From the sequence record OQ938541.1: 64,000 nt of DNA; one strand, given 5' to 3'. The notes beneath the pieces were generated by a model, which did not search any database, had not been told where the DNA came from, and was given only the letters and a program-made list of their open reading frames with translations. Position numbers and translations under genes: made by a program. Source of the DNA: Escherichia phage vB_EcoP_PE006. Below, one piece after another: positions 27,284-28,200 of this stretch; the stretch's first letter is position 1, and each line of letters opens with the position of its first letter.

Positions 27284-27817
27284 TTATTCTCCTAACAGCT
27301 TACGAATTTCACTACGGAAATTATTATACTCTTCAGGGTATTCAAACCCACATTCGAGAAGAGCGTAGTGAACAACCTTCAACAAATCCTGAGACTTATT
27401 CTTATCTTTATGTCGATAAGCGTATTTGATCATATTGGTTTGTTGGAAGTTCAACTGAGGGTTTGCATGGTAGAACTCAATAGGTTGAATCATCTTATTA
27501 TTGGGATTGTAGTGAGAGCCTCCCACCATAGATTCTAATGCTGGATTGCCTTGAGATGCCATTTCTAATTGCTCTGTGTGGTCATGTGAATAGTCTACTG
27601 GAGAGGTTTTGTTACCGGTAATTTTAGGCAAAATCGCTCTAGTTGTTTCTATGTATTTACCGCCATCAACATTAATTTGAAACTCTACAAGCTCATTCTG
27701 TAACTCATATCCTGATATGTTTGATAGCATGTCCAACTCATCCCTGAGAAAATTTAAAAGTTTGCTTTTAATTGCAAGAGCTTTCTTTAAATCTGTCATC
27801 TCTTCACTCATTTCCAC
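27284..27817 (-). CDS. hypothetical protein (DUF3310-like C-terminus, tentative)
   Basis: GGSHYNP...IQPIEF...NMIKYAYR resembles a phage domain of unknown function, recalled from memory. Confidence 0.4.
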   Translation of the reverse strand: MEMSEEMTDLKKALAIKSKLLNFLRDELDMLSNISGYELQNELVEFQINVDGGKYIETTRAILPKITGNKTSPVDYSHDHTEQLEMASQGNPALESMVGGSHYNPNNKMIQPIEFYHANPQLNFQQTNMIKYAYRHKDKNKSQDLLKVVHYALLECGFEYPEEYNNFRSEIRKLLGE

Positions 27818-28200
27818 TCTCCAGTGATTTCCATATCTGCTTTATCTCCTTTCTTAGTAAGGAGGATTGCTGGTTTATTCTTACTCTTCATATACTCAAA
27901 CATGTGCAAAGAACCTCTTGACTCTCCATCCCAGAAGACTATAACTGCATCTGCATACTCTCCCATATCTACGTTTCGAAGTATCCCAGCCTTTTTGCCG
28001 AGTGTGTTCCACGAAGGGATGAAACGTTTAATTGGGATATCATTGTGCTTAGCGACAACCTCTCCGTGAAGGTCTGGCCCTCTTGCACCACCTGACACTA
28101 CTTCTGAAACGAGCTTAGGGATTTCCTCTGGAAGTAAAGCCCACATCTGAGTAAAAGAATGCCAGTCTATCGACCGGCTTCCTGCGATTATTACTTTCAT
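27808..28200 (-). CDS. SLOG-superfamily nucleotide-binding protein (DUF2493-like)
   Basis: [10 protein letters not shown] ... VSGGARGPD ... AGILRN ... [12 protein letters not shown] matches the GSR / SGGARG / FWDG pattern. Confidence 0.65.

Follow-up and report, generated by a model that had tools for sequence, protein, structure and literature searches.

A SLOG gene in the sigma factor–exonuclease cluster of phage vB_EcoP_PE006

We analyzed a stretch of 64,000 nucleotides from Escherichia phage vB_EcoP_PE006 (sequence record OQ938541.1), referred to below as the window, with the focus on a minus-strand gene at positions 27808–28200 that encodes a protein of 130 amino acids (aa). Sequence, profile and fold all identify the product as a stand-alone YAcAr/DUF2493 domain of the SLOG superfamily. 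By fold and profile, its nearest characterized relatives are the cores of DprA and ShosA that bind single-stranded DNA (ssDNA), and not the LOG enzymes or ThsA. The gene is under purifying selection and dispensable. The locus contains the following features:

27808–28200, minus strand: SLOG (YAcAr/DUF2493) gene, an ATG-initiated open reading frame (ORF) of 130 codons, ortholog of phiEco32 phi32_35
28197–28841, minus strand: phage sigma factor gene of the extracytoplasmic function (ECF) type, ortholog of phi32_36 (PHROG 1740 at 2e-45)
27284–27817, minus strand: DUF3310 'nucleotide kinase' gene (PF11753 at 31.6 bits, above the cut-off; PHROG 26149 at 4e-84)
26461–27282, minus strand: 5'-3' exonuclease/FEN gene (PHROG 107 at 5.8e-65; weak match to Pfam 5_3_exonuc_N)
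29355–29372, minus strand: terminator-like hairpin from a consensus scan, bounding the spanin-sigma-SLOG-kinase-FEN unit upstream

An earlier note on this DNA had placed an ORF with characteristic motifs between the sigma factor and FEN genes. The ORF is indeed present, on the minus strand, with the motifs G7-S8-R9, S36-G-G-A-R-G-P-D43 and F89-W-D-G-E-S-R-G96 and a C-terminal end of GEWK. The sigma factor gene adjoins it as claimed, but on the other side the DUF3310 kinase gene separates it from the FEN gene. Reading the sequence directly, we found that the TGA stop codon of the sigma factor gene overlaps the SLOG start codon in an ATGA at 28197–28200; at 27808–27811 the SLOG stop codon overlaps the likely ATG (27811) of the kinase gene, again as ATGA. 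An AAGGA ribosome-binding site lies 9 nt upstream of the SLOG gene. The consensus scan predicted no terminator between the sigma and SLOG genes; the only terminator of the unit lies upstream of the spanin genes, and phage Paul has an annotated terminator at the corresponding position. Because this hairpin precedes the whole series from spanin through sigma, SLOG and kinase to FEN, these genes appear to be transcribed as a single unit. SLOG and sigma are probably carried on one transcript, and co-expression of SLOG with sigma and the nucleotide kinase is likely.

The window belongs to Kuravirus, the phiEco32-like coliphages. The region is 93–98% identical to phages of this genus (Gordonclarkvirinae), among them 172-1, NJ01, Paul and phiEco32, and the SLOG protein shares 95–98% amino-acid identity with its Kuravirus orthologs. 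The sigma factor is 99.5–100% identical at the amino-acid level to those of 172-1, Paul and Bas90, and that of phiEco32 is annotated as phi32_36 at the corresponding position.

The protein is a member of the YAcAr family

The earlier note had called the product a DUF2493-like protein of the SLOG superfamily, a call that holds at the levels of sequence, profile and fold. In Pfam, the protein matches PF10686 (YAcAr, formerly DUF2493; 'YspA, cpYpsA-related SLOG family') with E = 8.3e-6. The PF10686 model has 66 positions and covers residues 1–65. Since the protein by itself scores 26.0 bits, slightly short of the curated cut-off of 28.2, membership rests on the homologs and the fold. PHROG 289 matches at E = 2.2e-24. 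A large protein search found 706 homologs; nearly all of the 120 listed carry PF10686, some of them also PF02481 (DprA), and phmmer E-values against PF10686-carrying proteins range from 1e-22 to 1e-32 at 45–60% identity. In an alignment of 116 sequences, PF10686 matched every member (best 4.7e-21), with PF02481 the second-best family (106/116 members, best E 4e-8). Other matches were to cpYpsA (23 members), nucleoside deoxyribosyltransferase (NDT; 20) and YpsA (1), with none to LOG. Most homologs are 112–120 aa long (median 119).

In size the family is very large: among 1.84 billion cluster representatives, each standing for a cluster at 50% identity, a profile search gave 35,399 matches at E ≤ 1e-3 and 2,159 at E ≤ 1e-30, mostly from phages. 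By tblastn, we detected the family in 404 phage records, including Kuravirus, Grimontviridae, N4-like, Campylobacter, Bacillus, Vibrio and jumbo phages. Searches of NCBIfam and PADLOC with the protein returned no matches. In Pfam, at E-values up to 1, it matched only YAcAr and DprA and none of the signal sponges or degraders Tad1, Tad2 and Acb1-4; among the PHROGs it matched only 289 and 11222, and no known family of signal sponges or degraders.

The public labels of the orthologs vary between 'putative GTP-binding protein', 'GTP-binding domain', 'DUF2493 protein', 'DNA processing protein' and 'hypothetical'. We consider it highly improbable that the protein binds GTP. The case for this consists of the labels in GenBank and PHROG and a non-significant resemblance, 25 residues long, of the C-terminus to the GTPase YlqF (E = 0.065). 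The protein contains neither a Walker A/G1 nor an NKxD/G4 motif, Walker A occurs in 0/116 family members, and both fold and family are SLOG and not P-loop; we thus rejected the label. A search of the PDB with the single protein sequence gave matches to hepatitis E ORF2, YlqF and Uba1 (E 0.03–1.2), all of which we regard as chance.

Predicted fold and conserved loops

An AlphaFold (AF2) model built on the 116-sequence alignment (pLDDT 94.6, pTM 0.89) has strands alternating with helices in a beta-alpha repeat, followed by a C-terminal hairpin. Overall the model has a Rossmannoid architecture, with three alpha/beta layers and a core sheet of parallel strands. Nearly all invariant residues of the family sit in the loops after strands 1–4 (G-S-R, SGGxxGxD, W64...R75-N76 and WDGxSxG(S/T)), and the ligand-loop motifs of the family (G-[ST]-R, SGGxxGxD, RN and D/E..S.G[ST]) are all present and either invariant or at least 90% conserved. 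The elements map to the DNA as follows:

28174–28182, minus strand: G7-S8-R9 loop after strand 1; G7 invariant, S8 and R9 at least 90% conserved; aligns with 'GTR'/'GSR' of DprA
28072–28095, minus strand: S36-G-G-A-R-G-P-D43 glycine-rich loop after strand 2 (SLOG 'SGxAxGxD'); A39 and G41 invariant, S36, G37 and D43 at least 90% conserved; aligns with 'SGGALGVD'/'SGLARGID' of DprA
27973–28011, minus strand: W64...R75-N76 stretch; W64, A71, R75 and N76 invariant; 'RN' aligns with 'RNR' of DprA
27910–27936, minus strand: F89-W-D-G-E-S-R-G-S97 loop after strand 4; S94 and G96 invariant, W90, D91 and G92 at least 90% conserved; corresponds to '..SGS' of DprA
27823–27870, minus strand: C-terminal beta hairpin, aa 111–126, from the secondary structure of the AF2 model

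The tail beyond about residue 115 is confined to copies of the Kuravirus type. By analogy with other SLOG proteins, the loops after strands 1–4 would form one ribose-phosphate-binding pocket.

Dozens of predicted structures of viral DUF2493/YspA proteins, with phages, pandoraviruses and marseilleviruses as their sources, match the model at template modeling (TM) scores of 0.7–0.83. Against the PDB, the best Foldseek matches are to the Rossmann-like core of DprA (H. pylori, S. pneumoniae and R. palustris) and of E. coli ShosA, with TM-scores of 0.61–0.67 on the query and E-values from 5e-4; normalized on the DprA target, the TM-score is 0.3–0.4. The SLOG domain of ThsA with 3' cyclic ADP-ribose (3'cADPR) follows at rank 49 with a TM-score of 0.50, and YpsA reaches 0.44. 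The family profile matches DprA from the PDB with an E-value of about 0.012, and E. coli Smf with an hhalign E-value of 0.0019. The two align motif by motif: GSR with G(T/S)R, SGGARGPD with SG(G/L)A(L/R)G(V/I)D, RN with RNR, and S-R-G-S with SGS. After strand 3, DprA is longer by an inserted stretch of about 30 residues, and W64 of the window protein falls in that region.

These likenesses bear on the possibility that the protein is a minimal DprA-like accessory of the replication and recombination module with no small-molecule ligand, its pocket gripping a nucleotide of ssDNA so as to help FEN or a recombinase, helicase or polymerase, for instance by protecting or handing over ssDNA. We regard such a role as possible but somewhat doubtful, and as almost as probable as the ADP-ribose reading discussed below. 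R9 and R75 align with R52 and R143 of H. pylori DprA, which together with R170 contact ssDNA, and the equivalent residues of ShosA, R139 and R234, are required for ssDNA binding and antitoxin activity (PMC12961424). The fold ranking, the place of PF02481 as second-best family and the median isoelectric point (pI) of the family, 8.9, fit as well. However, half of the DprA fold is missing, including the parts for dimerization and RecA contact, the third DNA-contacting arginine (R170) corresponds to Glu102, and the two conserved arginines bind phosphate in SLOG proteins generally. The window copy itself is near neutral (pI 8.0, net charge +1).

We also considered a LOG-type enzyme and rejected it, as hhalign, Pfam and fold ranks all spoke against it. 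The hhalign comparison with the E. coli LOG enzyme PpnN gave no meaningful match (E 0.073 over 37 columns), and no LOG structure was present among the top 50 PDB fold matches. By motif register, and not by alignment, the glutamate of the LOG/ThsA 'GTxxE' motif corresponds to Met100, which is nearly invariant in the family.

The gene is under selection but dispensable

The dN/dS ratio of the SLOG gene is 0.05–0.16 against three orthologs, comparable to that of the FEN gene (0.03–0.06). Given these values, we conclude that the SLOG gene is functional and under purifying selection.

The sigma factor gene was found in 97 phage records, in about 67–70 of which a SLOG gene is recognizable. In Suseptimavirus (Bas88, EK010, SU7, ECBP2 and others) the sigma gene directly abuts the kinase gene, without SLOG, and the SLOG gene is deleted in the Kuraviruses LAMP, Bas94, O18-011 and XT73. 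The Bas94 deletion also removes the first 90 codons of the kinase gene, and the deletion in O18-011 and XT73 has the same size. Salmonella phage 7-11 (Grimontviridae) carries a SLOG copy of 57.5% identity in its replication module, where the FEN is 48.7% identical. From the deletions among close kin and the copy in phage 7-11, the gene looks old, retained and sporadically lost. It is dispensable, that is, accessory, and Suseptimavirus and the four SLOG-less Kuraviruses led us to reject an essential core replication gene. A gene of the leading region of conjugative plasmids was likewise rejected: the family occurs in only 21 plasmid records, all non-mobilizable. The size of these plasmids, mostly 100–200 kb, suggests that they are phage-plasmids.

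The BASEL siblings Bas93 (SLOG-plus) and Bas94 (SLOG-minus) constitute a natural pair for a genetic test. In the BASEL raw data, both plate alike on six restriction systems, RexAB, PifA, Old and Tin, while Fun/Z, the only tested defence that lowered their plating, reduces both, with an efficiency of plating of 0.03–0.27 for Bas94 and 0.01–0.04 for Bas93 (PMC11990801, file 8). Since SLOG-minus Bas94 is also affected, SLOG is not the sole trigger of Fun/Z, and any difference is at most several-fold. The panel contains no nucleotide-signalling defence and is thus uninformative with respect to the ADP-ribose reading discussed below.

Neighbors and fusion partners in other phages

We surveyed the surroundings of the family in 80 IMG/VR loci, reduced to 65 non-redundant ones, by calling ORFs and scanning the neighbors against Pfam. 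Immediate neighbors were ThyX (6 loci), FEN (3), ribonucleotide reductase (RNR; 2, plus NrdD), PolA (2), MazG (2) and metallophosphatase (2), with Pol III, AAA_24, PDDEXK, gyrase B, NADAR and PnuC found once each. Second neighbors were ThyX (4), DUF3310 (3), FEN (3), RNase H-like proteins (3) and DnaB (2), and once each UvsY, dCTP deaminase, DNMK, Acb3 and PnuC. Within two genes, ThyX was the commonest neighbor (10/65 loci), and FEN occurred at 6/65.

Individual loci add to this picture. In one phage contig (3641–6094 of that stretch), a polymerase gene is split, and the YAcAr gene and a 119-aa ORF occupy the space between its two parts, PolA-matching ORFs of 277 aa and 239 aa. In a 97-kb viral contig (4004–6998 of that stretch), YAcAr lies inside a 7-deazaguanine cluster with the order QueE (radical-SAM), a 104-aa ORF, YAcAr, QueC and a GTP cyclohydrolase I (FolE)/QueF-like gene, with DNA polymerase A just downstream. 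Up to a distance of 5 kb, no gene of the DpdA/TGT type was flagged there. Another copy lies between a PDDEXK nuclease and an AAA_24 recombinase. A Proteus phage has the order NDT-PnuC-SLOG-NrdD, Campylobacter phages have SLOG adjoining RNR and near UvsX, and Bacillus phage PBC4 has it between a primase and a RecB-like nuclease. In N4-like and Chaseviridae phages, SLOG is found in the early region. Lastly, a Kuravirus-like metagenomic contig has the order DUF4326-(sigma-sized ORF)-x-SLOG-DUF3310-FEN, with SIR2 nearby.

Among the 150 best profile matches, 48 were longer, multi-domain proteins. The fusion partners were NADAR (3–4 proteins), DUF4326 (3), Macro (2), RNase H (2) and DUF488 (2), and once each a Pol III finger, a P-loop kinase (AAA_33) and MarR. 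Further fusions known from the literature are to the superfamily 1B (SF1B) helicase HelB of ICP1 and to DciA in Streptomyces, and others have been described with helix-turn-helix (HTH), HNH, 3'-5' exonuclease and guanylate kinase domains (PMC9503650). Fusions are the strongest kind of association signal, and here they point mainly to ADP-ribose chemistry; fold, profile and neighbors point to DNA and nucleotide metabolism.

The ssDNA accessory introduced above would be at home among the neighbors FEN, PolA, DnaB, UvsY, the AAA_24 recombinase and the PDDEXK nuclease, as well as inside the split PolA, and it would fit the fusions to RNase H, Pol III, HelB and DciA. It leaves the frequent fusions to NADAR, Macro and DUF4326 unexplained. 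The same survey also bears on an alternative that we consider unlikely, namely that the protein works together with the adjacent nucleotide kinase as an enzyme or regulator of the nucleotide pool. As such it would be a (d)NMP N-glycosidase or base-exchange enzyme, or else a nucleotide-sensing subunit, and its effect would be to adjust or change the supply of dNTPs, perhaps in connection with DNA modification. The translational coupling to the kinase gene argues for this, as do the fusion of SLOG to the AAA_33 kinase, the reported guanylate kinase fusions, the frequency of ThyX together with RNR, NrdD, MazG, dCTP deaminase, DNMK and DUF3310, the Proteus and Campylobacter arrangements and the copy among the 7-deazaguanine genes. 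Catalytically active members of the TIR/DrHyd/SLOG clade, moreover, all cut or transfer N-glycosidic bonds (PMC9503650). Nevertheless, nucleotide-metabolism genes are common beside any non-structural phage gene, which makes context a weak signal, and phages naturally lacking SLOG are viable. The absence of detectable similarity to PpnN and of LOG among the top fold matches, together with Met100 at the position of the catalytic glutamate of LOG, also speaks against a nucleotide-pool role.

A possible role in ADP-ribose chemistry

Iyer, Burroughs, Aravind and colleagues predicted that phage SLOG domains of the YAcAr family employ or process derivatives of NAD+/ADP-ribose, and that they may work against immune signals of the host (PMC9503650, 2022; PMC7824862). 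Separately, the same authors proposed that DprA-like SLOG proteins of jumbo phages may act as extra ssDNA-binding proteins, and by their account both roles are experimentally uncharacterized (PMC7824862, PMC9503650). Our literature search found no experimental work on any phage YAcAr protein, in agreement with the earlier note, which had described the function in phages as open. That note had also suggested that the protein could process or sequester a nucleotide signal; this is one live hypothesis among others and had already been published as a prediction in 2022.

The reading that we favor, if tentatively and in the knowledge that it could well prove wrong, is that the SLOG protein binds or processes an ADP-ribose-type ligand, either free or on ssDNA. 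In this model, the protein would bind an ADP-ribose-type nucleotide and possibly cleave its N-glycosidic bond. The ligand might be a free NAD-derived molecule or ADP-ribose attached to ssDNA, and the effect would be to shield phage replication and nucleotide supply from NAD-derived attack by the host. In relatives, the fused or adjoining NADAR, Macro and DUF4326 enzymes would finish the job.

Several observations support this reading: the fusions of close relatives to NADAR, Macro and DUF4326; the occurrence of PnuC or NADAR beside SLOG in several unrelated phages; the experimental finding that orphan NADAR and DarG-like Macro proteins of phages neutralize DNA ADP-ribosylation by DarT (PMC11257639, PMC11481870); the published prediction for viral SLOG domains (PMC9503650); the patchy presence and absence among close relatives, which is typical of counter-defence genes; and the surroundings of the sigma gene in related phages. 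With regard to the last of these, the records of 40 out of about 97 related phages, for example phiEco32, SU10, Paul and Bas90/91, have a Macro-domain gene (phi32_37; Appr-1-p processing) next to sigma on its upstream side, where it separates the spanin genes from sigma. The Kuravirus-like contig with SIR2 has its DUF4326 gene in the Macro slot. The window has neither the Macro gene (28841–28860 region) nor the Nudix gene found in phage 172-1. Of 49 sampled Gordonclarkvirinae genomes, 20 had both SLOG and Macro, 14 SLOG without Macro, 1 Macro without SLOG and 14 neither (Fisher p = 6e-4). We did not accept functional coupling of SLOG and Macro from this co-occurrence: all four combinations exist, most of the double-negatives belong to one clade, and phylogeny confounds the comparison.

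A number of points weigh against an ADP-ribose ligand. The closest solved structures are those of the ssDNA-binding DprA and ShosA, with cADPR-binding ThsA only 49th, and the glutamate of LOG and ThsA appears, by motif register, to be Met100. No Macro, NADAR, Nudix or DUF4326 gene is present near the window SLOG, and the neighbors at the 65 loci are mostly ThyX, RNR, FEN, polymerases and kinases, with only 1 NADAR and 2 PnuC. The co-occurrence with Macro (p = 6e-4) is confounded as described, and our literature search turned up no biochemical or genetic datum on any phage member.

A more specific version, which strikes us as quite unlikely, is that YAcAr constitutes the DNA-reading half of a counter-measure against DarT-type ADP-ribosylation of replicating ssDNA. 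The DprA-like pocket would then recognize an ADP-ribosylated base on ssDNA, and YAcAr would either cleave the N-glycosidic bond between ribosyl and base on its own or bring in Macro, NADAR or DUF4326 enzymes. Such a role would account at once for the DprA-like fold, for the location in the replication module and for fusion partners as different as ADP-ribose hydrolases on the one hand and RNase H, Pol III and helicases on the other. A weaker variant would have the SLOG protein mimic the ShosA antitoxin in order to neutralize ShosTA. ShosTA is a defence system of avian-pathogenic E. coli, the hosts of these phages.

Variable surroundings of the SLOG gene

The kinase gene downstream of SLOG is modular. 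In the window, 172-1 and Paul, it consists of an N-terminal part of 100 aa and a DUF3310 module, while phiEco32 gp34 and the Bas90 kinase have the same N-terminal part up to 'MVGGSHY' followed by a P-loop (GPPGCGKD) kinase module. In Bas94, only the 89-aa DUF3310 core is kept. Two unrelated kinase-type modules thus alternate at the locus.

Elsewhere in the window, the 30.2–31.5 kb region is variable and contains small ORFs. Among them, a 75-aa ORF on the minus strand (30535–30762) retains just the final ~41 residues of the Ser/Thr phosphatase that phage Paul encodes in the same place, at 54% identity, and looks like a gene remnant. Convergent on the SLOG operon, a plus-strand ORF of 1541 aa (20811–25436) is rich in Ala, Glu, Lys and Gln repeats. 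It is labelled 'erythrocyte binding protein' or 'liver stage antigen', and the phage Paul record describes the phiEco32 homolog as virion-associated. An HNH endonuclease ORF (25871–26272, minus strand) overlaps a 122-aa ORF on the same strand (25651–26019) by about 150 nt. The real start of the latter is probably further downstream, because related phages annotate a shorter gene of 84–110 aa there.

Comparison with known systems

The window gene is a known member of a known family and holds nothing beyond the phiEco32 literature and the Pfam and PHROG records. What is gained here is the rejection of the GTP-binding label, the affinity to DprA and ShosA and the accessory status of the gene. With some 35,000 clusters and a presence in hundreds of sequenced phages and in giant viruses, the YAcAr family is often mislabelled 'GTP-binding', and finding its ligand would give a common phage gene an annotation and might bring to light a new accessory of counter-defence or replication.

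The best structural match is DprA/Smf (PF02481; PDB 4LJR, 5MLL, 3UQZ), with which the GSR, SGxAxGxD, RN and SGS motifs align and two of whose three ssDNA-contacting arginines align with arginines of the window protein. The window protein is about half the size of DprA, however, and lacks the SAM and DML1 domains as well as the extended sheet and helices used for dimerization and RecA binding. Its PF02481 score is 11.8 bits against a cut-off of 29.6, the full DprA Rossmann domain being about 200 aa plus extra C-terminal elements. Unlike DprA, the family has an invariant W64 and a conserved W90, and the gene is phage-borne and dispensable. ShosA, the antitoxin of the ShosTA defence (PDB 8ZVA, 9VZO), is the second-best fold match (TM-score on the query 0.64) and has the SLOG core and the conserved arginine pair in common with the window protein. 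It differs in its length of 328 aa, its SAM domain, dimer interface and RecA binding; the identity is 16%, and the phosphoribosyltransferase (PRTase) toxin that partners ShosA has no counterpart with the window SLOG.

The SLOG domain of ThsA, the 3'cADPR sensor of Thoeris (PDB 7UXS), belongs to the same superfamily, has the same general pocket architecture and is a precedent for binding of an ADP-ribose-derived signal. It is a much weaker fold match, its ligand contacts are R371/K388/E403, of which E403 is seemingly Met100 here by motif register, and the window protein, unlike ThsA, has no fused effector. The LOG/PpnN nucleotide N-glycosidases (PF03641) have the superfamily and a glycine-rich nucleotide-binding loop in common with the window protein, but there is no detectable profile similarity, they are absent from the top fold matches, and the catalytic glutamate of PGGxGTxxE is not conserved.

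Within the family, the C-terminal DUF2493 domain of the Vibrio phage ICP1 helicase HelB is 36.6% identical over 105 residues and likewise phage-encoded, in a DNA-replication context, but it is fused to an SF1B helicase and not stand-alone. Closest of all, phiEco32 gp35 (phi32_35, YP_001671780) and the other Kuravirus orthologs are the same 130-aa gene with the same ATGA overlaps. What sets phiEco32 apart from the window is the Macro gene (gp37) upstream of sigma and the P-loop type of the kinase's C-terminal module. The SLOG gene itself is placed in both phages between sigma (gp36) and kinase (gp34) and is materially the same.

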